A stretch of 64,000 nucleotides of DNA from a virus (Duplodnaviria > Caudoviricetes). A model generated the notes under the pieces. That model was given only the letters and a program-made list of their open reading frames with translations. It was not told where the DNA came from and did no database searches. The position numbers and the translations under genes are program-made. The DNA lies in the IMG/VR virus record IMGVR_UViG_3300021399_000012, positions 1 to 64,000 of that record; one strand, written 5' to 3'. Below, piece after piece: positions 1-31,318 of the stretch (within the stretch, counting starts at the first letter, position 1; each line of letters opens with the position of its first letter).

Positions 1-70
1 TGAGAGAATCGCAGAACTTGAGAAAATTATAAAGGAGAATAATGTCTAGATTTTCTAGGCATTACCCTTT

Positions 71-97
71 TTCGCATTATATTCAGCTTTTTATATG
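71..97 (+). promoter_or_regulatory. phage promoter motif TTCGCA-N15-TATATG
   Basis: Exact consensus, upstream of RBS. Confidence 0.75.
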
Positions 98-124
98 GAA
101 AACCATATAAGGAGGTAAATAAAT

Positions 125-430
125 ATGGCAGAACTGGAAAGAATTATAAATATCGAATGTAAGGATGACGATGGTAAATTGGACGAGTTCGTAAACGATT
201 TAATAGAGGAAATGTGCTTCTATTATAGATACGACAGAATCGAAGTTACGATATCAGAAGATATGGGATTGATGAATTTAAAGACTTCATATAAAGGATT
301 TAAATTCGGAGAGAATATCTATGATTTGCGTGACTACGTAAATAATCTGAATGGATTTATAGAGAAGATCATGGACAAAATCGATACGGACTATTGCAAT
401 GCCATCATGAATAAATACAAGATTCGATAA
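125..430 (+). CDS. hypothetical protein in promoter-ORF-terminator cassette
   Basis: ORF with GGAGG RBS, preceded by phage promoter motif (71-97) and followed by UUCG hairpin terminator. Confidence 0.8.
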   Translation: MAELERIINIECKDDDGKLDEFVNDLIEEMCFYYRYDRIEVTISEDMGLMNLKTSYKGFKFGENIYDLRDYVNNLNGFIEKIMDKIDTDYCNAIMNKYKIR

Positions 431-434
431 TTTT

Positions 435-455
435 GGGGCTTCGGCCCCTCTTTTC
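435..455 (+). terminator. intrinsic terminator
   Basis: GGGGC-TTCG-GCCCC plus T-rich tail. Confidence 0.85.
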
Positions 456-457
456 TT

Positions 458-484
458 TTCGCATTATATTCAGGTTCGTATATG
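458..484 (+). promoter_or_regulatory. phage promoter motif
   Basis: TTCGCA-N15-TATATG directly after terminator. Confidence 0.75.
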
Positions 485-514
485 AGAAACTATTTCATAT
501 AGGAGGTAATTATT

Positions 515-718
515 ATGAAAAAGGAAAGAAGTAAAATAACAAGTAAATTTGTAAAAGAAATAAAGGAAGCTGAAACAATTATTGTTGATGGTATGGGATA
601 TTATAACGCAGGTTATTATTGTAACGGTTGTAATGGAGCATGTCCTTATTGCGTAGTTGACGTGGAAGGTAAGCGTGCTTGTTACAAAGAAGAATTTGAC
701 AGATGCGAGATTAGGTAA
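515..718 (+). CDS. small Cys-rich hypothetical protein
   Basis: GGAGG RBS; CNGCNGACPYC motif; own promoter and terminator. Confidence 0.8.
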   Translation: MKKERSKITSKFVKEIKEAETIIVDGMGYYNAGYYCNGCNGACPYCVVDVEGKRACYKEEFDRCEIR

Positions 719-728
719 AATCAACAAT

Positions 729-758
729 AGGAGGTTTTTACAGCCTCCTCTTTCTTTT
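729..758 (+). terminator. intrinsic terminator
   Basis: AGGAGG(T/C) stem plus T-rich tail. Confidence 0.75.
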
Positions 759-783
759 CGCATTATATTCAGGTTCGTATATG
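757..783 (+). promoter_or_regulatory. phage promoter motif
   Basis: Identical to 458-484 copy. Confidence 0.75.
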
Positions 784-820
784 AGAAACTAATTGTTTAG
801 AAACAGAAAGGAGACTTATT

Positions 821-985
821 ATGATAACATTAAGTATTTTATTGATTATAGCATTAGCAATTATATTGGTAATCGCCGTGTTTGGCGGTTTCGGTATTAT
901 ATTGTTCGGTGATATAATCATTGCAATGGCAGTACTTGGAATGTTGATTAAGGGATTAGTCGACAAAGCAAAAGACAAGAAGTAA
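821..985 (+). CDS. 54-aa membrane protein (not in ORF track)
   Basis: Translated by hand: MITLSILLIIALAIILVIAVFGGFGIILFGDIII...KDKK; AAGGAG RBS; promoter at 757-783. Confidence 0.75.
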   Translation: MITLSILLIIALAIILVIAVFGGFGIILFGDIIIAMAVLGMLIKGLVDKAKDKK

Positions 986-991
986 CTCAGG

Positions 992-1020
992 AGACCTTAG
1001 CAAGTCTATAAACTGCTAAA
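992..1020 (+). repeat. 29-bp dispersed element AGACCTTAGCAAGTCTATAAACTGCTAAA (copy 1)
   Basis: Just after stop codon, followed by T-run. Confidence 0.9.
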
Positions 1021-1024
1021 CCTT

Positions 1025-1051
1025 TTCGCAATTTTTTCTGGTTTATATATG
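1025..1051 (+). promoter_or_regulatory. phage promoter motif
   Basis: TTCGCA-N15-TATATG. Confidence 0.75.
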
Positions 1052-1083
1052 AACGGAATAATAAAACGAAGGAGGTAATTATT

Positions 1084-1161
1084 ATGTTAAGTATGGTATT
1101 TTTATGTATGATTATTATTGGAGCAGTAGGTTTATTCGCAACCGGTAATAAGAAAGATTAA
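1084..1161 (+). CDS. 25-aa membrane peptide (not in ORF track)
   Basis: MLSMVFLCMIIIGAVGLFATGNKKD; GGAGGT RBS; own promoter (1025-1051) and terminator (1172-1198). Confidence 0.65.
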   Translation: MLSMVFLCMIIIGAVGLFATGNKKD

Positions 1162-1171
1162 AGAAGTACCA

Positions 1172-1207
1172 AAGGGCTTGATAGATATTCAAGTCCTTCG
1201 TCTTTTT
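1172..1207 (+). terminator. intrinsic terminator
   Basis: AAGGGCTTGA/TCAAGTCCTT stem plus T-run. Confidence 0.7.
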
Positions 1208-1232
1208 CGCATTATATTCAGATACGTATATG
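1206..1232 (+). promoter_or_regulatory. phage promoter motif
   Basis: TTCGCA-N15-TATATG. Confidence 0.75.
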
Positions 1233-1267
1233 AGAAACACTATTTATATTAAAGGAGGGTTTATGTT

Positions 1268-1552
1268 ATGGGTAAACTTTTAAAGATCATTGTAGGTGTT
1301 ATTGTTACAGTATTTGTAATCAACATGGGTTGCGGCATTAAGCGATCTGTTGATGAGTATACTTATGATTTCGGTTATGGAACCGGAACTAGTCTACACT
1401 TCAGCAGCATCGGAATGCACGACGACGAAGCGTGTTTGATCATGAAGCTGAATTTTGACATTGACGACTATGCATTGGATTGCGGCAAAGTTTATATCCC
1501 AATGTTTGAGCATATTGGCTCTAACAATATAGGATATGTGTTAGAAAAGTAA
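1268..1552 (+). CDS. hypothetical protein with N-terminal TM/signal segment
   Basis: Hydrophobic N-terminus; RBS; cassette context. Confidence 0.75.
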   Translation: MGKLLKIIVGVIVTVFVINMGCGIKRSVDEYTYDFGYGTGTSLHFSSIGMHDDEACLIMKLNFDIDDYALDCGKVYIPMFEHIGSNNIGYVLEK

Positions 1553-1558
1553 TTTTCA

Positions 1559-1587
1559 AGACCTTAGCAAGTCTATAAACTACTAAA
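1559..1587 (+). repeat. 29-bp dispersed element (copy 2, TACTAAA variant)
   Basis: One substitution. Confidence 0.9.
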
Positions 1588-1624
1588 GCTTTTTGTAAAA
1601 TTATATTTATGGAGGTAAAAGAAT

Positions 1625-1777
1625 ATGTTTAAGACAACTAAAGGAATGAAAATCGCAGGGTATGTATTTATGGGATTGATTGGCGCATTAGGATCTATTT
1701 TGTGTCATGCAGCATCTGATGAGGAACTTAGTGCAGCTATTCATAAAAAGGTTAAAGAAAACCAGGCAAATAAGTAA
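1625..1777 (+). CDS. 50-aa hypothetical membrane protein (not in ORF track)
   Basis: MFKTTKGMKIAGYVFMGLIGALGSILCHAAS...; GGAGGT RBS. Confidence 0.65.
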   Translation: MFKTTKGMKIAGYVFMGLIGALGSILCHAASDEELSAAIHKKVKENQANK

Positions 1778-1799
1778 TTATATTTAAGGAGGTAGCATT

Positions 1800-2072
1800 A
1801 TGGAAGATGCAAAAATTGTAACAGAGGCAATTGCTAAGGTTGGTCAGTTAGAGCTTGGCTTTAACTCTTTGGCGGATTTGACACTCAAGAATGCCACTAG
1901 AACAGCTAAGCTTTCAAGAAAACTATCAGGCCGTACGCTCGTAGTGGCTGTTGGTATGTGTGTAATTGCAGGATTCGGGGCTTTCGCTATTGACGAGCAT
2001 GCTCGTAGACTTGAAAGACTTGAGGCATTAGCTGGTATATCTGGCAACAGTAATAAGGAGGAATCTAAATAA
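1800..2072 (+). CDS. hypothetical membrane protein
   Basis: GGAGGT RBS; TM segment LVVAVGMCVIAGFGAFAI. Confidence 0.75.
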   Translation: MEDAKIVTEAIAKVGQLELGFNSLADLTLKNATRTAKLSRKLSGRTLVVAVGMCVIAGFGAFAIDEHARRLERLEALAGISGNSNKEESK

Positions 2073-2857
2073 TGGGCTTAGACATGAGAAAAGTAACAAA
2101 AATGTTCAACACAGCCAAGGCATTTGCTAACTTATATCAGGATGACATTATGATTGGTTTTGGTATTGCAGGTTATATTTCGGCAATATCCGATGCTTTC
2201 AAAGCAGGACCTAAGATTGAGAGGGCTCTTGATAGAGGAGATAAAGCTGCGTATGATGATGGTAGAGAATACACTACTCAGGAAAAGATCATGGACACAT
2301 GGAAATACTGGACTCCAGTTGTTCTTAAAGGTACCGCTTCTACAGCATTAGTATTAAAAGGACATTCTATCACAGCAAAAAGAAATGCTGGTTTAGCATT
2401 AGCATGTTCAGCTGCACAGAATGCGCTTATCGACTACAAGGACACTGTTAAAGAAGTTCTTCCTGAAAAGAAGAAGAAAGATATTGATGAGAAATATCTT
2501 AAGAAGCGTATGTCCAGCATTGGAGCTGTATCTAGCGACAACCTGCATCACGAGCCTGGCGATGTTAAAATGTTTGACGAGGCAAGTGGTAGATTCTTCA
2601 TGTCAACAGTAAATAAGGTTAATGCAGCTTGGATTAAACTGAAGGACCGTGTCCAGGATGAAATGTACGTATCTGTAAATGACTTTTATTCAGAACTGGA
2701 TAATCCAGATTTGAAACCTTGTACATTAGGTGAGTCTAGAGGATGGTCTGTCGATAATTATATGGACGGCGACATGGAAGTTTACACATCAGGCGCAATT
2801 GTTGATGATTTAGGTCAACCTTGCATCTGTGTAGTATTTGATCATTTTGATATATAA
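2072..2857 (+). CDS. conserved phage protein with N-terminal membrane anchor (DUF6353-like, paralog of 4122..5129)
   Basis: Shares architecture with 4122..5129 (IxxGxGI TM, KR-NAxL); family name from memory, needs HMM check. Confidence 0.6.
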   Translation: MGLDMRKVTKMFNTAKAFANLYQDDIMIGFGIAGYISAISDAFKAGPKIERALDRGDKAAYDDGREYTTQEKIMDTWKYWTPVVLKGTASTALVLKGHSITAKRNAGLALACSAAQNALIDYKDTVKEVLPEKKKKDIDEKYLKKRMSSIGAVSSDNLHHEPGDVKMFDEASGRFFMSTVNKVNAAWIKLKDRVQDEMYVSVNDFYSELDNPDLKPCTLGESRGWSVDNYMDGDMEVYTSGAIVDDLGQPCICVVFDHFDI

Positions 2858-2862
2858 AGGAG

Positions 2863-2889
2863 TTCGCAAGAATTTCCATTATATATATG
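2863..2889 (+). promoter_or_regulatory. phage promoter motif
   Basis: TTCGCA-N15-TATATG. Confidence 0.7.
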
Positions 2890-2930
2890 AGCAGAAAGCT
2901 CGATATTCAAGAAAACGGAGGAATAGAATC

Positions 2931-3173
2931 ATGGAAAATGAAATCATGGAGACAACAGAAACAACTGAAATTGTAGAGTCTGGAAAGAAGTCAGGCAAGA
3001 CAACAGCGATTGTTATTGGACTTTCAGCAGTGGCAGGTGCAGCAGTATATAAGCTGGCTAGCTGGGGCTGGGGAAAGATTACAGAAGCAGTTCACAAGCA
3101 GGACGAAGCTAAGGCTCGCAAGGCACAGGCTGAATCTGAAGAGGAGCCAGATGAGGTTTCCGAGGAAGAGTAA
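2931..3173 (+). CDS. hypothetical membrane-anchored acidic protein
   Basis: Start moved to ATG 2931 after GGAGG RBS and promoter at 2863-2889. Confidence 0.75.
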   Translation: MENEIMETTETTEIVESGKKSGKTTAIVIGLSAVAGAAVYKLASWGWGKITEAVHKQDEAKARKAQAESEEEPDEVSEEE

Positions 3174-3270
3174 TCTTCTGTACAACTGAATATTGTGAAA
3201 GACGAGCGTTCGGAGTAATATCCGGCGCTCAAAGTCTTTTGCTTTTGTTATTATATTTAAGGAGGATAAG

Positions 3271-3882
3271 ATGGCAAACGACAAGAACATCATTCCTGGA
3301 AATAGTTTGAAATCCAGAGAAGCTGCTGAGAAGCCAAAGACAACAAAGGTTATTAAGGGCAAGGCAGAATTGAAAAAGAAATCTGCTGGTAGACAGCTTC
3401 TTAATAGTTTCATTTCAGAAGATGCCGGGAATGTTAAAGATTATATTATAGGCGACGTTATTGTCCCAGCTGTAAAAGACGTTATTCAGGACATTGTTAC
3501 TAATTCAATTAGTATGCTTTTATTTGGAGATACTAGAGGTGGAAACAAAAGAAACAATCCATCAGGCTCTTATGTATCTTACAACAACAGATATTTCGGA
3601 GGATCGAAGCCAAGAGCGGCTGCTTCATCATCTAACAATTTTAATATAGATGATATATTCTTTGAGACTCGAATGGATGCCGAAGAAGCACTCGATAATT
3701 TGGTTGAGATGATTGACCGTTATGGAAGTGTTACTGTTCTGGAATTATATGATTCAGTTGGATTACAGTGTCCGCCATATACATCTGATAAGTATGGATG
3801 GACAAGACTTGGTAATGCTGCTGTAAGAAGAACTAGAGATGGTTATATTCTAGAATTACCTAGACCAAAGTATCTTGATTAA
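3271..3882 (+). CDS. conserved hypothetical phage protein
   Basis: Long ORF with strong RBS. Confidence 0.8.
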   Translation: MANDKNIIPGNSLKSREAAEKPKTTKVIKGKAELKKKSAGRQLLNSFISEDAGNVKDYIIGDVIVPAVKDVIQDIVTNSISMLLFGDTRGGNKRNNPSGSYVSYNNRYFGGSKPRAAASSSNNFNIDDIFFETRMDAEEALDNLVEMIDRYGSVTVLELYDSVGLQCPPYTSDKYGWTRLGNAAVRRTRDGYILELPRPKYLD

Positions 3883-3889
3883 TTAGGAG

Positions 3890-4108
3890 GTGGTCCTCGT
3901 GAATGATAATTATACTATAGAATACATGAGAAAGAAAATATCAAAGGTATACCCTGGTATGAAATGGGTTAACAAATGTCAAGCGATGCACCCAGATCAA
4001 GTGTATGCAATATATCATAAATTCAAAGAAGAGGGCCGCTTCGACAAAAAGAAGAATAAACAAAAAGAAGAATATTATCAGTATAATATATTTGATTACA
4101 TAAAATAG
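3890..4108 (+). CDS. hypothetical protein
   Basis: ORF in operon; start may be GTG 3899. Confidence 0.65.
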   Translation: MVLVNDNYTIEYMRKKISKVYPGMKWVNKCQAMHPDQVYAIYHKFKEEGRFDKKKNKQKEEYYQYNIFDYIK

Positions 4109-4121
4109 GAGGAATTATATT

Positions 4122-5129
4122 ATGGATATCATGACAGTTTTAAAAACTGCTCAGAAAGCCACTAAATTCGGAGTTACAAAATATGCTTCAGAAATTCTTT
4201 TAGGGGCTGGTATTGGACTTGGACTCTGTGGAACAGTAGAGGCTTGCAAGTCAACATTAAAGCTTGAGGAGACTTTGACACCTCAGAAGAATAAAATTGA
4301 ATATATTAAGGGTTGCAGAGATGGAGTTATTGAGACTCCTGAGAAGTACAAGAACTATACAATTGCAGACTTTAAGAAGGATTTGACAAAGGCTTATTTG
4401 GAGACAGGCTATAAGGTTTGTAGATTATATTCTAAGCCTATCATTCTTGGAACTATTTCTATTGGTTCATTGCTGGGTTCTCATAAGATCCTTAATAAGA
4501 GAAACGCTATGCTGCTTACAGCTTATGTAACTTTGGATGAGACATTCACAGGTTATCGTTCTAGAGTGGTTGATGAGTATGGTGAAGCTGTTGATACTCA
4601 CCTATATTATAACACAGAGATTGACGAAGTAGAAGTTACTGAGGTTGATGAGAAGGGTAAGGAAAAGAAAGTTAAGAAGAAGGTTCAGTATGTAGACGAG
4701 AAGACAGCAAAGAAGAATCCTTATTCATTCTTATTTGACTGCGGTTCTGTATGCTGGAAGAATGACGCTGTTAGTAATCTTACATTCTTAAAGGCTCAGG
4801 AGAATTACGCCACACAGAAGCTGATTGCACACAAGAGACTGTTCTTATCAGAAGTATTGGATGCTCTTGGAATTGATGTTCAGGATGAAGAGACTCTCGA
4901 ATTCGCGCACAACTACGGTTGGACATACGGCGAAGGAGATAACTTTGTAGACTTCGGATTACGTAAGTACGAGGATCTTGACATGCCTGTATATTCTCAG
5001 GATAATGCTTATTGGCTTGACTTCAACTGCGATGGTTACATGTTTAAGAGACTGAGTCATCCTGAAGATGAGATCACTTGCAAAGTCGATATGCGAGACA
5101 TGTTCGACGGACAGCCAGTAGACTGCTAA
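4122..5129 (+). CDS. conserved phage protein with N-terminal membrane anchor (DUF6353-like)
   Basis: EILLGAGIGLG TM segment; paralog of 2072..2857. Confidence 0.6.
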   Translation: MDIMTVLKTAQKATKFGVTKYASEILLGAGIGLGLCGTVEACKSTLKLEETLTPQKNKIEYIKGCRDGVIETPEKYKNYTIADFKKDLTKAYLETGYKVCRLYSKPIILGTISIGSLLGSHKILNKRNAMLLTAYVTLDETFTGYRSRVVDEYGEAVDTHLYYNTEIDEVEVTEVDEKGKEKKVKKKVQYVDEKTAKKNPYSFLFDCGSVCWKNDAVSNLTFLKAQENYATQKLIAHKRLFLSEVLDALGIDVQDEETLEFAHNYGWTYGEGDNFVDFGLRKYEDLDMPVYSQDNAYWLDFNCDGYMFKRLSHPEDEITCKVDMRDMFDGQPVDC

Positions 5130-5145
5130 GTGGAGGTTATTTGAA

Positions 5146-5778
5146 ATGAATATTATTAAGTATATTTTAACATTTGGTGCTGGAGCCGCTTTAGGCTCTG
5201 GTGTCACTTATTATATTGTGTCTAAGAAGAAAGACAAAGAGTGCCAGGAAGACATTGATTCTATGAAGGCCGAGTATAGCAAAAGAATCGAAGCTGCTGA
5301 GAAGAAAACAGAAGAGATTCCATCAGAAGATGAGATGGCTGAAATGGAAGCACCAGATGATTCTGACATTCCTACTTTTCATCCAGATGTAGAGTTAGAT
5401 GATTCGGAGATTCCGGAGAGTGCTATTAGAACTGGTGTAAACTATGCTTCTAAATATATGACAGCCTCTAAGGACGTTCCTGAGAATGTAGTTCGTAGAA
5501 ACATTGTGCCTATCAGTATTGATGAGTATGATGAAGACGACGCATTTACAAAGCAGGAACTTATATTCTATGATGAAGATTCTATATTAGCCGATTCTTC
5601 AAGCGATGAAGTCCGCAGCTTAGATGATATCGGCGGTGTACCTATGTTAGATCATATCGGAGATGATGCTCAGGATATGTTATTCGTAAGAGACTTGGAT
5701 ACTGCTGTTGATTACTCTATTTCTATTATGCATACTTCCTACAACCGCATAATGGGATATATGGAGGAAGATGAGTAG
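5146..5778 (+). CDS. membrane-anchored acidic hypothetical protein
   Basis: N-terminal FGAGAALGSGVTY TM, acidic C-terminus. Confidence 0.75.
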   Translation: MNIIKYILTFGAGAALGSGVTYYIVSKKKDKECQEDIDSMKAEYSKRIEAAEKKTEEIPSEDEMAEMEAPDDSDIPTFHPDVELDDSEIPESAIRTGVNYASKYMTASKDVPENVVRRNIVPISIDEYDEDDAFTKQELIFYDEDSILADSSSDEVRSLDDIGGVPMLDHIGDDAQDMLFVRDLDTAVDYSISIMHTSYNRIMGYMEEDE

Positions 5779-6307
5779 AGAGTCTTACTTCGAATGGTTG
5801 ATATCTTTTGTTGATGACGGGCAAAATATACGAACGCACAAAAAGTTATTGAGTGAGCTGTTTGATACTGAATTTTATTGGACAGTTCCACTCGATAAAA
5901 ATCGTGCAAATGACGGACTTGGACTTCGAAGTCAATATGTAGATAGTTTGCCAAAGAGAATCCGTGAGCGTGAAATAAATGAACTTGATGGTGCTTGTTC
6001 TGTATTAGAAATGATGGTGGCATTGTCAAGTAGAATGGAACATACTATTATGTTTGACACTGCTTATGGAGATAGAACAGCGATATGGTTCTGGATGATG
6101 ATAGAGAATTTACAACTTTTATCATTTGTAGACAATCGATATGACCATGTCGAAGTTGGGGGAAGACTTGTAAAATTTCTGCAGAGATCATATAGTTCAG
6201 ATGGTCGTGGTGGTTTGTTCTGGATACCAGATACAAAACATGATATGCGTAAACCTGAAATATGGTATCAAATGAACTGGTGGGTCGATTACTTACTAGA
6301 TCAATAA
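5771..6307 (+). CDS. conserved hypothetical protein upstream of replicase
   Basis: Overlapping start/stop with previous gene; long ORF. Confidence 0.75.
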   Translation: MSRESYFEWLISFVDDGQNIRTHKKLLSELFDTEFYWTVPLDKNRANDGLGLRSQYVDSLPKRIREREINELDGACSVLEMMVALSSRMEHTIMFDTAYGDRTAIWFWMMIENLQLLSFVDNRYDHVEVGGRLVKFLQRSYSSDGRGGLFWIPDTKHDMRKPEIWYQMNWWVDYLLDQ

Positions 6308-6340
6308 TGATTAAAATATTTTGGAAGGAGAGTACATCAA

Positions 6341-11687: not shown

Positions 11688-11885
11688 ATGGAAAAACTTA
11701 TATTTAGTTGTGAGTTTCCAGCAGATTCCTCTGAAGCTGAGAGACTTACAGATTGGTTAATCACAAATCGTGTTAGAAGAGTAGTTACATCATCTAGTTT
11801 CAAGAAGGGTGTTATATTCACATCATACTTTATAGAATGCACAAATAAAATGCAACTTAAAAGATTATTAGACCTTTTCGCATAA
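11688..11885 (+). CDS. hypothetical protein
   Basis: GGAAGGAG RBS. Confidence 0.65.
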   Translation: MEKLIFSCEFPADSSEAERLTDWLITNRVRRVVTSSSFKKGVIFTSYFIECTNKMQLKRLLDLFA

Positions 11886-11903
11886 TTTACAGTCCAGATT
11901 ATA
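11877..11903 (+). promoter_or_regulatory. phage promoter motif (variant)
   Basis: TTCGCA-N15-ATTATA(GG). Confidence 0.5.
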
Positions 11904-12046: not shown

Positions 12047-12056
12047 ATATTGTTAA

Positions 12057-12085
12057 AGACCTTAGCAAGTCTATAAACTGCTAAA
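12057..12085 (+). repeat. 29-bp dispersed element (copy 3)
   Basis: Exact copy. Confidence 0.9.
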
Positions 12086-12090
12086 TTCTT

Positions 12091-12117
12091 TTCGTATTAT
12101 ATTCAACCATGTATATA
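12091..12117 (+). promoter_or_regulatory. phage promoter motif abutting RBS
   Basis: TTCGTA-N15-TATATA followed immediately by GGAGGTG. Confidence 0.7.
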
Positions 12118-12324: not shown

Positions 12325-13518
12325 ATGGCCTTCGAATTATATCCGCATCAAGAAGCGGCGTTGAGAAAAATGAAAAACGGTTGCATTCTTAATGGCGGAG
12401 TTGGTAGTGGTAAGTCAATAACCGCAATAGCTTATTATTTTTTCAAGAACGGTGGAATCTATGAACATCATCACATGATGCCAATGGTTAAAAAGCAGTT
12501 TCTTGTAATCATAACGACTGCTAGAAAAAGAGATACCTTCGAATGGAATAAGGAGTTGTCACTTTTCGATCTATATGTCGAGAACGGAGACGCTGTTATA
12601 GATTCGTGGAATAACATAAAGAAGTATTCTGATATGAAAGATGCATTCTTTATATTTGACGAGCAACGAGCTTCTGGATCAGGAGCTTGGGTAAAGGCAT
12701 TCCTAAAGATCGCGAAATCTAATGAGTGGATACTGTTGTCAGCGACTCCTGGTGATTCATGGGTTGAATACGCTCCAGTTTTTGTGGCGAATGGTTTCTA
12801 TAAAAACATAACCGAGTTTAAAAGAGAGCATGTTGTTATGAGTCATTACGGAGGATATCCAAAAATTGACAGGTATATAAATACTGTTCGATTGAATAAA
12901 CTCAGGAGATCTATATTGGTTGATATGGATTTCAAGCGTAAGACTAATAGAGTGCACATAAACGTTTGGGTTCCTTGGGATAATGTAGCTTATAAAAGAG
13001 CTATAAAAACCAGGTTTAATGAGGAAACCGGTGAACCATTTAAGAACGCATCTGCATTATGTTATTATTTAAGAATGATTCTAAATAGTAATCCAGATCG
13101 CTTAGTCTTTACGTACGATATTCTTAAAGAAAAGAAGAAGGCTATTATATTCTACAATTTTGACTACGAGCTGTATATGCTTGAACAAATGCTAGATGAG
13201 TACTCTATACCATATGGAGAATGGAATGGACATCAACACAATCCGATTCCAGATACTGACACATGGGCGTATTTAGTTCAGTACAATGCTGGCTCAGAAG
13301 GCTGGAATTGTACAAGATGCGATACAGTTATATTCTACAGTCAAAATTATTCATACAAGATGACAGAACAAGCTTGCGGTAGAATAGACAGACTTAACAC
13401 ACCGTATAATAATTTATATTATTATCATTTGAAGTCTAAGGCCGGAATAGACTTGGCAATAGCTAAAGCATTGAAAGATAAAAAGAATTTTAATGAGTCA
13501 GCTTGGACTTCGCAATAA
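12325..13518 (+). CDS. superfamily 2 (SNF2/DEAD-like) helicase
   Basis: GGVGSGKS Walker A, FIFDEQ Walker B, LLSATP motif III, QACGRIDR motif VI. Confidence 0.85.
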   Translation: MAFELYPHQEAALRKMKNGCILNGGVGSGKSITAIAYYFFKNGGIYEHHHMMPMVKKQFLVIITTARKRDTFEWNKELSLFDLYVENGDAVIDSWNNIKKYSDMKDAFFIFDEQRASGSGAWVKAFLKIAKSNEWILLSATPGDSWVEYAPVFVANGFYKNITEFKREHVVMSHYGGYPKIDRYINTVRLNKLRRSILVDMDFKRKTNRVHINVWVPWDNVAYKRAIKTRFNEETGEPFKNASALCYYLRMILNSNPDRLVFTYDILKEKKKAIIFYNFDYELYMLEQMLDEYSIPYGEWNGHQHNPIPDTDTWAYLVQYNAGSEGWNCTRCDTVIFYSQNYSYKMTEQACGRIDRLNTPYNNLYYYHLKSKAGIDLAIAKALKDKKNFNESAWTSQ

Positions 13519-13535
13519 TTTCAACCTCTTATATG
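13509..13535 (+). promoter_or_regulatory. phage promoter motif
   Basis: TTCGCA-N15-TATATG; no ORF downstream. Confidence 0.7.
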
Positions 13536-14449: not shown

Positions 14450-14692
14450 ATGATATACATTATAGCTATTATAGCATTGATTATTGGTATTATATTTGGA
14501 ATCTTTATCGGTGTCAGGATGAAAGTATCCGAAGTACCTAATGTTGGTACCTTATGCGTCGATATGGATTCTGCTGGTTTTTTCTGGGTTGAATTTTCAG
14601 ATAGATCGACTTTTGAATCTATGAAAAATAAATACCTTAATAAGCAGGTTCGTATGAAGGTGAAACCTGTGCATTATGAAAAGACGCAATAA
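14450..14692 (+). CDS. hypothetical membrane protein
   Basis: N-terminal TM helix. Confidence 0.7.
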   Translation: MIYIIAIIALIIGIIFGIFIGVRMKVSEVPNVGTLCVDMDSAGFFWVEFSDRSTFESMKNKYLNKQVRMKVKPVHYEKTQ

Positions 14693-14709
14693 TTTCCGTT
14701 TCTTATATG
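14683..14709 (+). promoter_or_regulatory. phage promoter motif
   Basis: GACGCA-N15-TATATG. Confidence 0.65.
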
Positions 14710-15505: not shown

Positions 15506-15532
15506 TTCGCAAGGTTTTCAACCATCTATATG
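15506..15532 (+). promoter_or_regulatory. phage promoter motif
   Basis: TTCGCA-N15-TATATG. Confidence 0.7.
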
Positions 15533-15765: not shown

Positions 15766-15770
15766 TATCA

Positions 15771-15799
15771 AGACCTTAGCAAGTCTTTAAACTGCTAAA
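15771..15799 (+). repeat. 29-bp dispersed element (copy 4, GTCTTT variant)
   Basis: One substitution. Confidence 0.9.
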
Positions 15800-15804
15800 A
15801 CTTT

Positions 15805-15831
15805 TTCGCAATATTTACAGTTTCATATATG
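15805..15831 (+). promoter_or_regulatory. phage promoter motif
   Basis: TTCGCA-N15-TATATG. Confidence 0.7.
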
Positions 15832-15873
15832 GAAAAATCAGCATTTTGCAATGATGGTAAATTCATTACTACA

Positions 15874-15902
15874 AGACCTTAGCAAGTCTTTAAACTGCTA
15901 AA
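15874..15902 (+). repeat. 29-bp dispersed element (copy 5, GTCTTT variant)
   Basis: One substitution; no RBS-led ORF upstream. Confidence 0.9.
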
Positions 15903-15942
15903 ACTTTTTTAGGTAATTATATTATAAGGGAGGTAACTTAAT

Positions 15943-20011: not shown

Positions 20012-20125
20012 CTGGCTGTGGTGTAATGGTAACAGGCTACTTGGGCGCCCATGTTGGATTATTAGGTATACATAATAATCTAACACTTGAGAGTAGAAAT
20101 TCAGGTTCGATTCCTGGCGGCCAGA
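20012..20125 (+). ncRNA. tRNA-like RNA with 50-nt expanded anticodon loop (pseudo-tRNA)
   Basis: Acceptor CTGGCTG/CGGCCAG+A, D arm GTGT-AATGGTA-ACAG, anticodon stem CTACT/AGTAG, T arm TCAGG-TTCGATT-CCTGG at canonical spacing; loop carries a 13-bp hairpin. Confidence 0.7.
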
Positions 20126-20128
20126 CTA

Positions 20129-20155
20129 TTCGCATTATTTTCTAGTGCTAATATG
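20129..20155 (+). promoter_or_regulatory. phage promoter motif
   Basis: TTCGCA-N15-AATATG. Confidence 0.65.
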
Positions 20156-20353: not shown

Positions 20354-20359
20354 TTTTAA

Positions 20360-20388
20360 AGACCTTAGCAAGTCTATAAACTGCTAAA
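20360..20388 (+). repeat. 29-bp dispersed element (copy 6)
   Basis: Exact copy. Confidence 0.9.
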
Positions 20389-20409
20389 ACTTTTTATAAA
20401 GGAGGAAAA

Positions 20410-21108: not shown

Positions 21109-21109
21109 T

Positions 21110-22100: not shown

Positions 22101-22115
22101 TGGAGGAAAACACAA

Positions 22116-22617: not shown

Positions 22618-22626
22618 AGGAGGGGA

Positions 22627-23339: not shown

Positions 23340-23350
23340 GGAGGAGTAAG

Positions 23351-26300
23351 ATGAATCAATGGGCTACAACAGTTGATAGATTCTTGGAGTTTTTCGACGA
23401 TATTGAAAAAATCAACTATCAAAAGAAAATCATAGTATTCGACGAGAACTATAACAATGATGAACTAAATAAGATATACGACTTGCTTAAAAACAAGTGG
23501 AAAGTCAACAAGTTAGATCGTTTAGATCACTTTGATAGTTACGAGAAGTATACTTATGAATACAAATACAATTACGATTTAATAGAAAGAAAAATTATAT
23601 TAGTTGAGAATTGTGACCTGGATGTCATAACCGATGCTTATGAATTGTTTGAATATATAAGAGAAGGTTATGAGTTATGGCATGTTGTTTCACAGTTTAC
23701 TCAGTATATATGGGATAAGGAGGAGTAAATGGATAACACTGAATTCTTATTACAGGAAATCGAAGGGTTAGAGAAGTCATTGAAAGAAGCTAATGATAAA
23801 ATCGAAGCTTTAGAGAAGGCCGAATCGATTATTAACGATAGCGAATTGATCATTGCTCCATTCTCTGTTCCAGCGCCAATTATTCCAGATCATATAAAAA
23901 ACGCAATGACAGATATTTATAAGTGGATGAAAACAGAATCGTATGGCGCAATACAAACGGATTATACAGACAACGGAATTTTAAAAATGTTTATACATTT
24001 AGAGAATGTAGAACCTGTTAAGATTAATTTATCGGAGGTATTGAAAGATGATTAACGGTTATTATATTGATCTAATTGACTTGTCTGGTCTTTTAGATAA
24101 TCAGCAGAAAATAGACGTGTCTTATGATGACGGTGCTAAGGGTTATATCGGCACCTTACATGGTTGTCCAATCGCTTTAGGAAGGGTTCCAGTTAGCCAA
24201 CTAGAGGCAGCAGATGATACTTTAAAGATTACATTAACAAAGGGGTGATTGAGGATGGAATTTGTAGAAGTAATGAAACATAAACAAAGAATGTGTGATC
24301 ATTATTATCGGAAGAGCTTATGTCATAAATGCCCTTTGAGTTCTATCAATAGCAATAATGGGAAAGGTTTTCTAGGTTGTGCCGAATTTTGTACTAAATA
24401 TCCAAAAGAAGCTCAGACAATCATTATGAACTGGACAAAAGAGCATCCATTTAAAACCAACAGAGAGGTAGCAGAAGAGGTTCTTACAGAGAAATTCGGG
24501 GATATATTTGACGTATCTCAGTTGGGCTGCAGTTTCCTAAAGGAACCATGTGGGGCCATAACATGTACAGAATGTGATATTCATGATTTTTGGGATCAGG
24601 AGTATAAGGAGGTACCTAAAGATGCGAATGGAAATTGATATAGATGAATATGATTATGAAAAGGTAAAAGAACTTGTATCAGATGGAGTGTTTGATTACG
24701 AAGGAACTACTGCACATCTATATAAAAGTGTTGCAAATGGTAAGGTAGAAGATTTACCTAACACAGATGCGATAGGTAAAGAAGAATATGTGAAGAAATC
24801 AGACATTGTTGATATGTACGAGAATGATTTCCCGAACTTAGATGATGGTGTGCACTGGAGTAGGAGCGATATTATTAATAATCTAGATGATGTTCCTAGT
24901 TATTTTATGACGCCGGTAGAGTGCACAGAAGTAAGACCTATTACTCATAGTCATTGGGTTCATCATAAGGGAGAATATCATGAATATGTAAGTTGCGCCA
25001 AATGCGGTGAACTTGCTAAATGTGCCGAAATGGCTGATTGTGTATTGTGGAAATATAGCACATATTGCTCTGATTGCGGAAGTATTATGGATGGAGAAAT
25101 CGAGGAGGTAGAAGAATGAATATTTTTTGGAATATTGCATATTTCGTGTTGGCGGCATTATTTGTTGTAACATTTGCTTACCTTGGAGTGTTTCTTCATA
25201 AGGCGACAACAGAAGATTTGCCTGATCAAGGAGGTAGAAAAGTGAATAATGAAGATCAAACTGTTTCTGAGTTTTATAATAAGTTGCCTGAGGAAAAGAA
25301 AGAAACTATAACAGCTTTTGTTAAAGCAGCAATTAGTAAACAGGACAAAATTGATTCACGGTATATAGAATGCTTTAAGACAAAATTTACCGATGAAGAA
25401 AAAGATATCACATATTATTTAGTTGGTTCTGCTATCGAGAAAGAATGGAGCGAGGTGAAAGATAATGAAGAAAGACAAAATTAAAGATATTTTCATTTGG
25501 GTACGCGGGATTTCACTTTGCATAGCTGCAGTATGTGTTATATTTGGATTTTGTGTTCCGAATGTATTAGCAAAGGAATCTAAAAAGAATACAGTGAGAA
25601 TAACTGAATATGACAATAAAATCATAGGTGACGATGCTGGCGGTATAATCGATTTCACAGACCCAGAGACCGGAGTGTGCTACTTTATTTATAAGGATGG
25701 ATATCATGGAATGGGTCAGGGTGGAATGACCGTGCGATACAATGCAGATGGCAGCATTATGGTTAGAGATGTTACTGTGATTGATAAAATAGAAGAGAAA
25801 GGAACTGGAGGTAAGTAAATGAAGAAGAAAGTAATTAGTTTAGGTATTATTTTAACATTATGTGTTATGGTGCTCACAGGCTGCTCTGAGAAGACTAGAG
25901 CTAGAAACTTTGGTGGTAACGCTTCAATTGATTTAGAGCCAGGAGAAAAGCTTGAAGAGGTTACATGGAAAGACAGTAATCTCTGGATTCTCACAAGACC
26001 GATGAAAGACGGTGAGACTGCCGAGACATATAAATTCTCTGAGGATAGTGAATTCGGTGTCCTCGAGGGAACTGTTACTATTATAGAGCATGAAGGAGAG
26101 TAGATATGGATAAAGAACTTTATGTAATATCTTCTTTAGGTGGCGATTGGCAGAAGGCTGTTAAAATGACGAAAGAGGAAGCAAGAGCCATTGATTGGTT
26201 TATTGGACAAACTGATGTGGATTATTATATTCAGAACGCAAAAGAGATAGTGGAGGAAATAGAATAATGATTAACTGGAATAAAGTTTTTACTAGTATAA

Positions 26301-29300
26301 TAGCGTTTATTATCGTTATGGTTATCAGTTTCTTAGTTACAGCTGGGTTAATCAAAGTACTTAGTTTATGCTTTGGTTTTGTATTTAGCTGGAAGCTGGC
26401 TTTAGGTATATGGGTGCTATTTATTCTAATAAAATGGCTACTTCCATCAAGTAAAAACTAAATAAGATTATATTTAAGAAAAGAGGTAAAAATATTATGG
26501 AAAATTTAGAAAGATTCAAGGGTATGACAGTTGTTGCTAAGGATAGAGTTGGTAATGCACCATTTGGAGATGTTACATTAACTTACAATCCAAAGAGAAC
26601 AGAGGTGTACATCGCTATTGATCGTGTTGCGTGCACAATTGCGTTCAAGCACATTGAGGATCTTCGTATTCTTCCAATTCTTGATTATAAGAATAAGAGA
26701 TTATATCTGGTTCCTGATGAGCGTGGGTATGTTATGCGTGGTACCAAGACTAGCAAAAACAGCAGACTTAACTTTGCATCAACTCCATTGTTCACAGAGT
26801 TCAAGAAGCACAAGCTGTCTAGTAGTATTTCTGATTTAATATTTGATTCTAAGCTGAATGCTTATTATATTGAATTAAATTAGGAGGTACCACCATGTCT
26901 AAAACAAAAATATGTGATATATGTGGAGAACCAATGCACTACTATCCACGATATCAAATACGTCAGACTGCTTTAGGGTTTTTATCACAGGAAGAATACC
27001 TGAGTGACGTAAAAGATGTTTGCAATCCATGTTATAACAAGTTCATTAGATTTGTAGAAAAGGAGAGAAATAAAAATGAGTAGATATATTATAGCTATAC
27101 CAAAAGATCCAAGATTCGATAAGTATAAATATATAGCTGAAAGTGTTGCAGGACCACGTTTTACCGATTGTGTTTTTGAAGCTATATGGTATGGATCTAG
27201 AGTTGCTGCTGAAATAGCAAAAGACAATTTATCAAGAGAGTATCATGCTATCGTTTTATCTCTTGAGAATACTATTGCGCAGATAGATAGAGAAAACGAT
27301 TATAAGCCTTTCTATATCCTCCGCGATACATCAGATAATAGGATGGTGCGCAAAATAGCGACGCCGATGAGCATACCATTATTCACAGATGGTTTGAAGA
27401 ATACTCTGAAGTTTGAGACTGTTGATGAGGCGATGGACGCTATAGATAATATAAATAGACACACGAATAATACTTATGAGTTCATTGTCGAGATGCATCA
27501 TTTTGATGAGTTCTATAAGGAGCGGTATGAGCATTCTGAGGAACCACAGTTTTTTATACATGGTGGTCGTGGAGGTGGAAAGACTTGGCTTGACGAGAAC
27601 CCTAATATCGCTATACCAAATACTGTCACTATGCACTACACCGGACACAGTTCTATTAATTCTATTATATCAGCAAAGGAGATGTACAATATGTTTGGAT
27701 CAACTTATCATTTACCAGAGATTAAGAAAGTTATATTCAGCAATTCAGTCACTATTGTATTATGGAAGGATGGCACTAAGACCATCGTAAGATGCCAGGA
27801 TGGCGAGACATTCGATCCTGAGAAGGGTCTGGGAATGGCGTTTATGAAGAAGGCATTCGGTAACAAGGGTAACTATTTTGACAAGGTGAGAAACCTGCTT
27901 AATAATGCTACCTATCAGAACGAGGAGGATCAGGCAGACCAGCAGGATCGTAAAGGCTGTAAGGACGATGTTCCTTTCGCTAAGAAGACAAAGAACGGTA
28001 CTTACAAGTGCCCTCATTGTTCTAGATTCGTGCCTTCTAAAAGAATTGAGGGTAAGAAGGGTCCTTTCACATGCGATAAATGCGGTAAGAAATTTAATAT
28101 CAACTGGGAAGGAGAATTAGATTATGAGTTTTAAGGCGATACTTGTTGTGATCATTGTTTTATCATTGGGCGTACTCTTTTGGCTTATTGCATTAACTGC
28201 AACTACGATTTCTACAGATCAAGCTAAAATGATTGCTGATTCTTGTGCAAATGAACTTGAGTGGAAACTGCATGGTGAGATACACAAATTGAGTTATGAT
28301 CAGCAATTATATCGTGAAGAACTCGACGAATTGAAGTCTGCTCTTAATGAACAGGGTATCGCTACTGGTTATACAACTGAGAAGAAATTATATTATAAGG
28401 ATAAGAAAGATGAACGAACCAACATGTGAGAAATGCACGCATTATGATACTTATCCTGGAATCTGTGGGTGGACAGAAAGAATCTGTGACATCCACGGAA
28501 ACCTGGATTTTAAAGACATATCAGCGTGTGAAGATTTCGAAGATATGAATGAGAGAGTAACCGAAATTCTACACAAATACAATACATCAAAGAGGACACT
28601 ATGAACTGGAAAAGAAACTTATTAACAATAATTGAATTAATTATATTTGCAGGCATTTGTTATGGTGTTCATTTATATACACATTATCTGGGAGGACATC
28701 TATGAGAGAATACACATCTATAGAAGAACTAAAGTCATGGCTAAAAAAGAGAAAGAGCTTAAAGAGTCTAATACCTTATGAAGACATCATAACATATTTA
28801 GACTCTAAGCCTCCTCTCAGAATAAGAGATGATGATGCCAAGAAACTATTAGTAAAGTACAGACCGGCAGAACCAAGAAAAGACTACACATACACCATAA
28901 ACGAAATAACATTCGACACGTATGAGGAGTTTGCTGATTGGTTGAACTGGGCAAACGATGAAGACTCAATAGGTTACATTATTATATTAAGTATAACGGA
29001 GGTGCCGAAAGATGGAGGATCTACGCAATAAATTAGATGAAGTCACTGCCACAATAGCAAATAATTACAAATTGAGCGAAGCGTATACATCAGAGATTAT
29101 ACAAAATAGTCTGGACGCAATAACAAACAAGGAGGAAAAGAAAGATGAATAAACCAACATTTGAAAGTTTAATGGATATGAATGCTAAGGAGTTATCAGA
29201 TCTCAAACGTAAGACCTGGGATGCTGTGGATATTATGAGAAATTATAAGACAATGACCGGTGGATCTACAAAGCCATCATTAATTGCTTTCGACTATGTA

Positions 29301-29809
29301 AACATCATTAAGTCAGGAATTGGTGCTTTCAGTTGTATCGGGGCAGCAACTATCGGTTTCTTAGCCGTTAAGTATTACACAGATAAGAAGTACAAGGAGA
29401 ACGAAAAGGTTGATGATAGGAGATGATCGAGTCGTTGGTATGATTTCATTACTAGTACTGATGGCATGCTACTTTATATTTAAGAAGGAGGACTGATCAT
29501 ATGGAAAACGAAAAAACATTAATGAGACATACAGCAGAAGTGGACGTTCCAGTACAGGTTACTGTAGACAATATCCAGGAGAAAGTAAAAGAAATAATTG
29601 GCTGCGATGATCCTGTAGGTCATTATATCCAATATACTCAGAAATATGCAAATGCAAATATAGATGATAAGTATACCGGAACAATAGTTGCTGAATATGA
29701 GCATCTATATGTTATGGAAGCTCAATTGCCTGAGAATAGAGTATTATCTATTTGTATTAACAAGGCTGACATAGCATGCGGAAAGGCTATAGTTAAGGTG
29801 TTAGATTAA
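23351..29809 (+). other. run of about 20 co-oriented small hypothetical ORFs (e.g. 23351..23728, 23729..24055, 24048..24248, 24249..24638, ~24620..25119, 25116..25484, 25465..25818, 25819..26103, 26267..26461, 26497..26883, 26895..27083, 27076..28134, 28124..28429, 29145..29426, 29501..29809)
   Basis: Tightly packed ORFs with RBS and overlapping start/stop codons; several TM, lipoprotein-like or CxxC-containing; no recognisable function. Confidence 0.7.
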
Positions 29810-29985
29810 ATGACAGCTATTTTATATGTATTTTTAATATGTGTCATGTTATTAGCATTTGTTCCTATTGGAATATTTGTAGGCTTTGTTATTAAGACTT
29901 TCTGGTATTATATTTGGAAACTTGCGATTTTTGCTGTATTATTAGCTGGGGTAATATATCTATTTAATATGTTAGGAGTGCTTAT

Positions 29986-30174
29986 ATGAATAAATTGAAA
30001 GATATTTTAGAAGATCGATGTATGACTCAGCGTAAACTCAGTGACAAAACTGGTATATCTGAGATCACTATTTCACGCTATGTTAACGGTAAAAGGACAC
30101 CTAATGTGCGTGAAGCTATGTTAATTGCACGGGCTTTAAATGTGTCAGTAGACACTATTTGGCCTGCAGAATAG
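29986..30174 (+). CDS. XRE/Cro-family HTH transcriptional regulator
   Basis: MTQRKLSDKTGISEITISRYVNGKRTP..AMLIARAL signature. Confidence 0.85.
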   Translation: MNKLKDILEDRCMTQRKLSDKTGISEITISRYVNGKRTPNVREAMLIARALNVSVDTIWPAE

Positions 30175-30182
30175 GTAAATTA

Positions 30183-30216
30183 TGGTCTCCTGGCTGGTGC
30201 TGGGAGACTATTTTTT
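30183..30216 (+). terminator. intrinsic terminator ending middle-gene operon
   Basis: GGTCTCCTGGC/GCTGGGAGACT stem plus T-run. Confidence 0.75.
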
Positions 30217-30246
30217 ATCGTTTTTTCTTCAATTTCTATTATTTTT

Positions 30247-30469
30247 TTTCTGACACTTTTCTGACACTTTTGTATTTTTTGTCATTTTTCTGACACTTTT
30301 CTGAAAAATCTGACAGAAATGGGAGTAATTTTAGGGTGTACGGACGGTAAAAAATGACAAATTTCTGACACTTTTTGCCATTTCTGACACTTTTCTGACA
30401 CTTTTTTTTCAAAAATGACAAAGCGGAAAGCCTTGCTGGGAGCGGGTTTCAGCGATTTTCTGACACTTT
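30247..30469. repeat. iteron-like array, 7 x TTTCTGACACTTT (putative replication origin)
   Basis: Copies at 30247, 30258, 30287, 30362, 30381, 30392, 30457; extra TGACA/TGTCA cores; adjacent A/T tract; gene-free. Confidence 0.7.
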
Positions 30470-30581
30470 GTCACTTTTTTCTTTAATTTACTCACGAAAA
30501 AAAAAATTAATAATATATAGTAATTTGCCAGAAAAAGTGACAAAATGACAAAACTTGTCCGGGAAGGCCCAAAACTTGCCA

Positions 30582-30608
30582 TTCGTTATATTTTCAGCGA
30601 CATATATG
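30582..30608 (+). promoter_or_regulatory. phage promoter motif (variant)
   Basis: TTCGTT-N15-TATATG. Confidence 0.55.
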
Positions 30609-30637
30609 GAAAATATGTCTGTAAGGAGGTAAACAGT

Positions 30638-30949
30638 ATGAAAGTATTTATTATTTATATGATTATCGGTATGGTGATCATAGTGGCACAGGAAATAATA
30701 ATTGATAGTGTGTTATATGGTATAAGGAATTTCAAGACTGTATTTCGGTATACACGTAATGTATTCAAAACAGAAATGTGGAAACTGAATACTATTGAAA
30801 AAGTTATAACATATATAGTACTAGCATTATGGTTTCTAGTATGGCCTACTATGATAATATGGATCATTATCCGAGATATCAGGATAATAAAGAGCGGAAA
30901 TTTAATTACATTGGAACAGATACTTTCCGAAGAACAGGATGAGTCTTAA
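30638..30949 (+). CDS. two-TM membrane protein
   Basis: Start moved to ATG 30638 after AAGGAGGT; promoter 30582-30608. Confidence 0.7.
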   Translation: MKVFIIYMIIGMVIIVAQEIIIDSVLYGIRNFKTVFRYTRNVFKTEMWKLNTIEKVITYIVLALWFLVWPTMIIWIIIRDIRIIKSGNLITLEQILSEEQDES

Positions 30950-30967
30950 TTGACTCTCCTTTTCTTT

Positions 30968-30994
30968 TTCGCATTATCTTCAGGTGGATATATA
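30968..30994 (+). promoter_or_regulatory. phage promoter motif abutting RBS
   Basis: TTCGCA-N15-TATATA followed immediately by GGAGGTG. Confidence 0.7.
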
Positions 30995-31008
30995 GGAGGT
31001 GAAGTATT

Positions 31009-31212
31009 ATGAACAAAATAACAAAGATACTCACAAGTCTGGATATGATGAAAGATGATCACATGAGAAAGAAAGAACAGAGAAGAAGAGAATACATGGA
31101 AGCTATGGAGAGCATAGCAAAAGGAAAAGTAGAACTTCCAGATCTGTTTGATAAGAAGTTAACTCATGAGATTAACAAAATCAATGAGGCGTGTGAGCGA
31201 AATAAAAAGTAA
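31009..31212 (+). CDS. hypothetical protein
   Basis: Cassette with promoter 30968-30994 and downstream hairpin. Confidence 0.7.
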   Translation: MNKITKILTSLDMMKDDHMRKKEQRRREYMEAMESIAKGKVELPDLFDKKLTHEINKINEACERNKK

Positions 31213-31291
31213 ATATTAAACCAAGTATAGATCGTGATAATTTCATGGTCTATATTTTTTTTTTGTCATTTTTCGACTTGCCAATCGTTAC

Positions 31292-31318
31292 AACGCGAAA
31301 ATTTCAACCCCTAATATG
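31292..31318 (+). promoter_or_regulatory. phage promoter motif upstream of nuclease-RNAP operon (variant)
   Basis: AACGCG-N15-AATATG. Confidence 0.5.

Follow-up and report, generated by a model that had tools for sequence, protein, structure and literature searches.

Which enzyme reads TTCGCA-N15-TATATR, a promoter-like motif that recurs in one orientation through the first 31 kb of a gut phage genome? The genome is the 72,052-base-pair (bp) viral record IMGVR_UViG_3300021399_000012 of IMG/VR, and the window analysed here is its bases 1-64000. An earlier reading of the window (the sequence-only reading) had taken the copies for promoters of a type other than sigmaA, served by an enzyme or factor encoded by the phage. 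We propose, with a probability of roughly 0.6, that they are promoters of a single-chain RNA polymerase of the phage, that transcription starts at position 27 of the motif, and that the enzyme probably arrives with the virion. The best explanation is that the motif class is specific to the phage lineage and drives its early and replication genes, and the same promoter design is most likely common to hundreds of related phages of two bacterial phyla.

The motif and its placement

The exact motif occurs 10 times in the window, always on the plus strand (0.06 expected from shuffles), and 15 times in the whole genome. A weight matrix trained on the exact copies was run over the whole genome and over 20 shuffled genomes. 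It returned 24 unique copies of 13-49 bits, against a best score of 7.8 bits in the shuffled genomes. All 24 are on the plus strand and the scan found none on the minus strand, confirming the co-orientation reported earlier. Fifteen lie in the window, where a degenerate copy can be added at 31292-31318, and nine lie beyond it at 69.6-71.7 kb. Thus 16 of the 17 copies of the sequence-only reading were recovered in the window; the seventeenth was not identified. Lacking in the matrix scan are copies at 31.4-69.5 kb, the region of the polymerase and particle genes, as had been noted for the structural region. A 4-kb stretch of tiny genes (69.6-72 kb and 0-1.2 kb) contains 13 of the copies. Promoters of phage polymerases are recognised by an arrangement in which one long motif recurs in a single orientation before phage genes, as the 24 copies do here.

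The spacer is as rigid as first described: 15 bp in 18 strict copies, and 14, 16, 17 or 18 bp in none. Spacers of 13 bp (three cases) and 11 bp (one case) were also counted, and look like alternative readings of TATATATA runs. The motif had been called bipartite, and the two blocks are real, but the term is too simple, as a conserved middle makes the signal nearly continuous over about 27-28 bp. A T-run is followed by TTCGCA (positions 1-6, with CGCR at 3-6), a middle TTCAG whose C, at position 14, is invariant, then five variable bases, TATAT (positions 22-26, with T at 26) and a purine at position 27 (consensus tTTTTCGCAaTaTnTTCaGnTnnnTATATGaGaa). Position 27 is G in 19 and A in five of the 24 copies, and never T.

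All copies are intergenic. Of 25, including the degenerate one, 21 fall outside any plus-strand open reading frame (ORF) of at least 50 amino acids (aa), and the remaining four overlap only the upstream extension of mechanically called ORFs. Most copies have a hairpin with a T-run, or a repeated 30-nucleotide (nt) element, on their upstream side and a Shine-Dalgarno sequence with a start codon on their downstream side, so the placement described earlier (past a terminator and before a ribosome-binding site) holds for most of them. GGAGGTG directly adjoins TATATA at 12091 and 30968, as had been stated, and also at 70120, 70391 and 71669 outside the window, and GGAGG adjoins the box at 69796. 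These six copies read TATATAGGAGG, the ribosome-binding site beginning directly past the box.

The copies might not be promoters at all, and could instead be binding sites of a phage regulator or RNA-level signals (for processing or anti-termination) tied to terminators. Their position directly past terminators or the 30-nt repeat would suit such a role, as would the inverted repeat that flanks copies in Streptomyces phage Rima. However, the densely terminated early genes would then be left without any promoter, with sigmaA-like sites not enriched, and the co-orientation with genes, the fixed distance to the ribosome-binding site and the T/purine step at positions 26/27 are features of promoters. 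We regard this explanation as improbable.

Host sigma factors

A sigmaA promoter has a spacer of 16-18 bp, a -10 hexamer with A in second and T in last place, and a start 6-9 nt downstream. None of the strict copies has a spacer in this range. Neither frame of the second block provides the -10 hexamer: read at positions 22-27 it ends in G or A, and read at 21-26 it has T in second place. A start 6-9 nt past the box would also delete the ribosome-binding site, because GGAGG adjoins the box in six copies; the same constraint applies in Lactococcus phage 1706, where the Shine-Dalgarno sequence is very close to the box. The earlier conclusion that these are not sigmaA promoters is supported by the 15-bp spacer, by a purine in all 24 copies where a -10 hexamer would end in T, and by the adjoining Shine-Dalgarno sequences.

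We also considered canonical sigmaA promoters elsewhere as the drivers of the phage genes and rejected them, as sigmaA-like sites stand at chance level (61 against 62.8 expected, and 21 against 21.3) and mostly inside genes. A phage sigma factor as the reader was likewise rejected. No sigma70 region 2 was found in six frames of the genome, and the sole stretch resembling region 4, a helix-turn-helix (HTH), is the C-terminus of the phage polymerase.

Ordinary host promoters, served by sigmaA or an alternative host sigma factor and no phage factor, would account for copies that stand at promoter places, and TTCGCA and TATATG each match the sigmaA hexamers at four of six positions. The invariable 15-bp spacer and the -10 without final T speak against them, as do the occurrence of the same frame in phages whose hosts belong to two phyla and the distribution of the motif in bacterial chromosomes. 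Of 18 matches in the complete chromosome of Faecalibacterium prausnitzii, 12 are within 26 kb on the upstream side of the prophage polymerase gene and on its strand, and the other six equal the count of the reversed-pattern control (six). The same confinement to the prophage was found in F. hattorii, F. tardum, Blautia faecis and Ruminococcus torques, and outside the prophage the motif is at background in all five genomes. The motif is therefore not a host regulon, and we disfavour ordinary host promoters as very improbable.

The phage polymerase

The proposed reader is a protein of 1066 aa encoded downstream of the last copy in the window. It matches phrog_4291 (E 2e-297; annotated as 'RNA-dependent RNA polymerase') and carries HTH domains near both ends, the C-terminal one resembling sigma region 4 below the Pfam cut-off. 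The loop SGADFDGDT is invariant in seven orthologues, and D609, D611, G612 and D613, the residues of the DxDGD signature, are invariant in 26 sequences. A search of the PDB by sequence gave no match. The AlphaFold model (mean predicted local distance difference test score, pLDDT, 71.7) has as its top Foldseek matches QDE-1 (E 5e-6), plant RDR2 and gp64 and gp62 of the P23-45 type (E 3e-3). Among P23-45-type enzymes it matches the gp64-type structures 8f72 and 8f5m, and gp96 more weakly. Template modelling (TM) scores are low because the protein has several domains. On sequence and model, it is assigned to the YonO/QDE-1-like two-barrel polymerases.

A computational study describes the family as a putative polymerase with an HTH at each end, common to phages of Streptomyces, Arthrobacter, Gordonia, Lactococcus and Faecalibacterium, whose shared core comprises replication and structural blocks and the HTH-bearing polymerase (10.1101/842583). 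Ruprich-Robert and Thuriaux placed the protein of phage 1706 among five YonO-like families (PMC2919709). Neither study mentions promoters. We found at least 7,832 protein clusters of the family, and 250 isolated phages that carry it. The polymerase also occurs at 316 places in bacterial reference genomes, mostly of gut Clostridia.

Two leads support delivery of the enzyme with the virion. One is the GenBank record of phage 1706, in which the depositors named the homologue, ORF75, 'structural protein' (a note for ReqiPoco6 repeats this). The other is an N-terminal leader with Leu-x-His that the polymerase shares with five ORFs of the head region (window 32325 for the polymerase, then 36906, 39509, 40742, 41133 and 42177). 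The Leu-x-His stands at residue 17 in the polymerase and three of the head-region ORFs, and at residues 8-9 in the two others. Past the leader, the polymerase and the ORFs at 36906 and 39509 have a conserved stretch rich in glycine and aromatic residues. The shared leader could be a signal for capsid targeting or for a protease.

Conservation of the motif in related phages

We searched relatives for repeated words without presupposing the motif. The same element emerged from each, and the versions align without gaps on CGCR (positions 3-6), C14, T26 and the purine at 27. It reads TTCGCA-TTATATTCAGGTTCG-TATAT-GAGAAAC in this phage (positions 1-6, 7-21, 22-26 and 27 onward), TTCGCA-N15-TTAAT-GAA in two metagenomic relatives (G001 and G002), GACGCG-AAAAAATCAGCCGCC-TTTAT-GAAAGG in Faecalibacterium phage FP_oengus, TTCGCA-TGTTTTACATATACT-ATAGT-AGAAAG in phage 1706 and GTCGCA-TATTTTACACGCCCT-ATAGT-GAGACC in Rima (59% G+C). 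The generalised pattern CGCR-N7-C-N7-WWWRT-R is biased to the coding strand in nine of ten polymerase-bearing phages (for example 25:3, 13:1 and 12:0), with 0-2 matches in reversed-pattern controls. The hosts of the ten (Arthrobacter, Gordonia, Curtobacterium, Streptomyces, Rhodococcus, Lactococcus and Faecalibacterium) are Actinobacteria and Firmicutes. When positions 25-27 are unconstrained, T26 and R27 continue to predominate, and do so on the coding strand alone. The strict pattern anchored on CGC misses Lactococcus phage P078 and finds only two sites in 1706; a k-mer search of 1706 gives 10 copies, the first box often being CACA.

A blind scan of 2.9 million viral contigs (IMG/VR) with the strict motif returned 11. 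Four of these carry several copies consistent in strand, and each of the four is a relative of this phage. Together with the nine of ten phages above, this shows motif and polymerase gene occurring together, a co-occurrence that the sequence-only reading had proposed to test. Three of the four contigs (G005, G008 and G011) were examined as candidates for the motif without the polymerase and set aside, as they are linear fragments that start at the gene next after the polymerase and end before it. With 253 records for the DNA polymerase and 250 for the RNA polymerase, the latter belongs to the lineage core, and no polymerase-less relative was found to serve as a control. In every lineage, the operon of endonuclease, exonuclease and polymerase is preceded by the last copy, some 1 kb upstream of the polymerase gene.

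How the motif may be read

With a start at position 27, TTCGCA would span -26 to -21, and the A+T-rich box -5 to -1. We favour this start because the abutting ribosome-binding sites then stay in the transcript. Polymerases of the cellular type follow a pyrimidine(-1)/purine(+1) rule, and the start at 27 is further favoured because it fits this rule and yields a purine-rich beginning (GAGAAA, AGGAGG, GAGACC). The HTH domains at both ends of the 1066-aa enzyme would substitute for recognition by sigma. CGCR (at about -24) would be their target, with the middle element, one helical turn further downstream, as a possible second one, and the A+T-rich stretch at -5 to -1 would melt. The first polymerase molecules would probably arrive with the virion, as in N4, crAss-like phages and P23-45; this is suggested because a weak motif copy precedes the gene and no promoter of host type can be seen. 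Polymerase made de novo would then reinforce the programme.

Several observations weigh against this proposal. Presence in the virion goes back to one depositor annotation, that of 1706 ORF75. YonO, the only tested relative, transcribes late and not early genes, and the place of the polymerase gene behind this promoter class fits an order in which the host enzyme acts first and the phage enzyme then reads late genes. Many relatives are prophages; upon induction these have no virion enzyme, and so must rely on the host for some of the polymerase expression. The actinophage box, TATAAT, is the canonical -10 hexamer, and a host holoenzyme on a -10-only promoter is possible in these phages. We found no covariation beyond chance between polymerase residues and the A or G at motif position 6; residues 227 and 476, which had appeared as covarying columns, were dropped, as relabelled controls give 0-7 such columns.

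Much of this would suit the main rival explanation, a host holoenzyme redirected by a phage adaptor in the manner of T4 MotA/AsiA, with the adaptor bound to CGCR and a constant interval between this box and a -10-like one. The phage polymerase would then read only late genes, as YonO does, and a second motif of the late region (ATTCAAAATRGG) could be its own signal; the virion-delivered, HTH-bearing 'polymerase' could even be the adaptor itself. Such a mechanism would explain the TATAAT or TATAGT box of actinophages and 1706, the polymerase gene behind the motif class in all lineages, and prophage induction with no virion enzyme. It fares less well in phages of Firmicutes, where, among more than 60 copies, the key A and the final T are never both retained in either frame of the box. 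The box also shifts by one base against the fixed upstream anchor between clades, the Shine-Dalgarno sequence adjoins it in six copies here and lies very close to it in 1706, and no conserved small adaptor gene is known in the family core described above. We judge an adaptor rather unlikely, and note that on sequence alone a phage polymerase reading the motif and a host polymerase with a phage adaptor are not separable. The broader claim of the sequence-only reading, an enzyme or factor encoded by the phage, is supported by the absence of any sigma domain beyond the C-terminus of the polymerase, by a frame kept across two phyla and by confinement to prophages.

Comparison with known systems

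Promoters specific to a phage polymerase are a known kind (T7, N4, AR9, phiKZ, P23-45). One close parallel is Thermus phage P23-45, a siphophage with two single-chain two-barrel polymerases, gp96 in the virion and gp64 outside it, each tied to its own conserved motif upstream of a temporal class of genes and common to relatives that bear the enzyme (PMC10770324). Unlike those enzymes, the polymerase described here belongs to the phrog_4291 family, is not fused to a tape measure protein, has HTH domains at both ends and is encoded by the only polymerase gene of its phage. Start sites have been mapped in P23-45 and chromatin immunoprecipitation data exist, whereas the promoters here are proposed from sequence. 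YonO of the Bacillus prophage SPbeta is similarly a single chain homologous to multi-subunit polymerases, with a DxDGD loop and a gene beside siphophage late genes; it has one late operon with a single start, and its promoter and any cofactors were left undefined (PMC5467207). The present phage differs in its 24 putative promoters in the early half, the fused HTH domains and the lead on virion packaging.

With T7 promoters the motif shares a long continuous conserved element, a TATA-like A+T stretch followed by a purine (here the proposed initiating base) and a purine-rich start, and copies of graded strength across the genome. However, the T7 enzyme is an unrelated right-hand single-subunit polymerase, and the element described here would reach to about -26 with a gap of variable bases. 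The proposed likeness to N4 and crAss-like phages lies in a packaged and injected enzyme whose promoters stand before the early genes, which would free the phage from host promoters at the outset. N4 has a T7-like enzyme that recognises DNA hairpins, in contrast to a linear duplex motif here, and gp66 of crAss-like phages is a domain of a much larger protein, in contrast to an enzyme of 100-120 kDa for which packaging is only proposed. The two blocks also match TTGACA and TATAAT of sigmaA promoters at four of six positions each (the second is TATAAT in actinophages), but the 15-bp spacer, the purine in place of the final T of the -10 hexamer, the conserved middle, the adjoining ribosome-binding site and the absence from host chromosomes set the motif apart.

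We found no description of a promoter class for this polymerase family in the literature searched. In its fullest form the proposal is of a complete transcription machine in one polypeptide, in which fused HTH domains would replace sigma, which would ride in the capsid, and which would start at T26/R27 of a 27-bp promoter code common to thousands of phages of Actinobacteria and Firmicutes. This version is tentative, and we lean slightly against it. If true, the motif would be the first promoter to be defined for a YonO-like enzyme, and enzyme and promoter together would form an orthogonal expression system usable across phyla. How single-chain two-barrel polymerases find their promoters is a question for which the motif offers a sharply defined candidate, with dozens of natural variants per genome, and cultivable members are at hand (Lactococcus phage 1706, Faecalibacterium phage FP_oengus and many phages of Arthrobacter, Gordonia and Streptomyces). 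Since the family is very large, a promoter rule would improve the annotation of transcripts and operons in a large fraction of siphophages from gut and soil. Should the enzyme need no help to read the motif, it would be a compact candidate for host-independent expression in Gram-positive bacteria.

Genomic context and accompanying elements

The genome has a terminal repeat of 127 bp at its ends, and its sizeable genes are all on the plus strand. No close DNA relative was found in the phage collection searched. The first 31 kb of the window encode tiny genes, two DUF6353 genes, a primase-polymerase of 1344 aa, a helicase and many unknowns. From 36 kb onward we identified an HNH endonuclease, the large terminase subunit and a fused protease-capsid protein, and the large ORFs beyond the latter are taken to be tail genes. 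Tiny genes occur again in the last 2.5 kb of the genome, beyond the window. Coordinates are collected in Table 1.

Table 1. Motif copies, genes and repeats, in window coordinates unless genome is stated.
Feature	Position	Strand	Remarks
Exact copy	71..97	+	45 bits; inside 127-bp terminal repeat, recurs at genome 71996
Exact copy	458..484	+	49 bits; directly 3' of hairpin and T-run
Exact copy	757..783	+	directly 3' of hairpin and T-run
Exact copy	1025..1051	+	30-nt pseudoknot-like repeat upstream
Exact copy	1206..1232	+	matrix and exact match
Exact copy	2863..2889	+	end of first DUF6353 gene
Weaker copy, ATTATA box	11877..11903	+	17 bits
Copy TTCGTA...TATATA	12091..12117	+	GGAGGTG adjoins box
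Exact copy	13509..13535	+	overlaps helicase stop codon
Weak copy, GACGCA	14683..14709	+	first box is that of FP_oengus
Exact copy	15506..15532	+	matrix and exact match
Exact copy	15805..15831	+	pseudoknot-like repeat upstream
Copy, AATATG box	20129..20155	+	directly 3' of tRNA-like sequence
Weaker copy, TTCGTT	30582..30608	+	matrix scan
Exact copy	30968..30994	+	GGAGGTG adjoins TATATA; then 67-aa ORF, terminator 31223-31257
Degenerate copy AACGCG-N15-AATATG	31292..31318	+	about 1 kb upstream of polymerase gene; end coordinate of the motif in the sequence-only reading
Endonuclease and exonuclease genes	31404..32304	+	open the operon that ends in the polymerase gene; phrog_93, phrog_3953; synteny in relatives
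Putative two-barrel RNA polymerase, single chain, 1066 aa	32325..35525	+	phrog_4291; HTH near both ends; proposed motif reader
AAGACCTTAGCAAGTCTWTAAACTGCTAAA repeat	990-1024, 1557-1592, 12055-12090, 15769-15804, 15872-15907, 20358-20393; genome 70084, 70984, 71634		
ATTCAAAATRGGG motif, examples	43505, 45438, 46820, 48037, 53178, 58187, 59061; genome 67739		

Between the copy at 31292 and the endonuclease gene there is a second degenerate promoter-like copy, TAGACT-ATTATATTCAG...-TAATTT (window 31344-31372). The most over-represented word in the genome is the 9-mer ATTATATTC, with 23 copies. Scans of the window for transfer RNAs (tRNAs) and Rfam families gave no match. A tRNA-like sequence adjoins the promoter copy at 20129 (window 20014-20128); it has the start of an acceptor stem and D-arm (CTGGCTGTGGTGTAATGGTAACA) and the end of a T-arm and acceptor stem (GGTTCGATTCCTGGCGGCCAG) with about 45 extra bases between them, and is not called by ARAGORN or Rfam.

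The sequence AAGACCTTAGCAAGTCTWTAAACTGCTAAA, with a T-run after it, is present in nine near-identical copies at places that hairpin terminators hold before other promoters, and six of the nine are directly before a promoter copy. The repeat has overlapping stems (AGAC/GTCT and TTAGCA/TGCTAA), a possible H-type pseudoknot, and may be a terminator for the phage polymerase.

In Rima (25890-34090), an inverted repeat of 7-11 bp, AGGGGTC(TC) ... (GA)GACCCCT, stands on either side of the promoter copies, so that the whole promoter lies within a potential hairpin loop. This phage also has a separate repeat, GGGGTTTGGGTTT, 3' of terminator-like hairpins. In FP_oengus there is an 870-bp gap (26900-27766) before the endonuclease-exonuclease-polymerase operon. 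Upstream of the last motif copy (27684), the gap contains a sigmaA-like TTGCAA-17-TACGAT and TGGCCA inverted repeats, and could be a host-read, repressor-controlled start for the first polymerase of a prophage.

A non-coding gap of 350 bp (window 35800-36150) separates the polymerase operon from the first packaging genes. It contains complementary G-rich and C-rich runs (GGGGGAGGGG and CCCCCTCC), has similar text near the ends of G001 and G002, and may serve in packaging or in late control. Downstream of it, a second one-directional motif, ATTCAAAATRGGG, is found only in the half of the genome with the particle genes, partly inside genes (window 37735-59070). The word TCAAAATG(G) is over-represented also in FP_oengus, G001 and G002. 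The late-region and early motifs have in common an A/T-rich run with ATR, and ATTCAAAATRGGG may be a late start signal.

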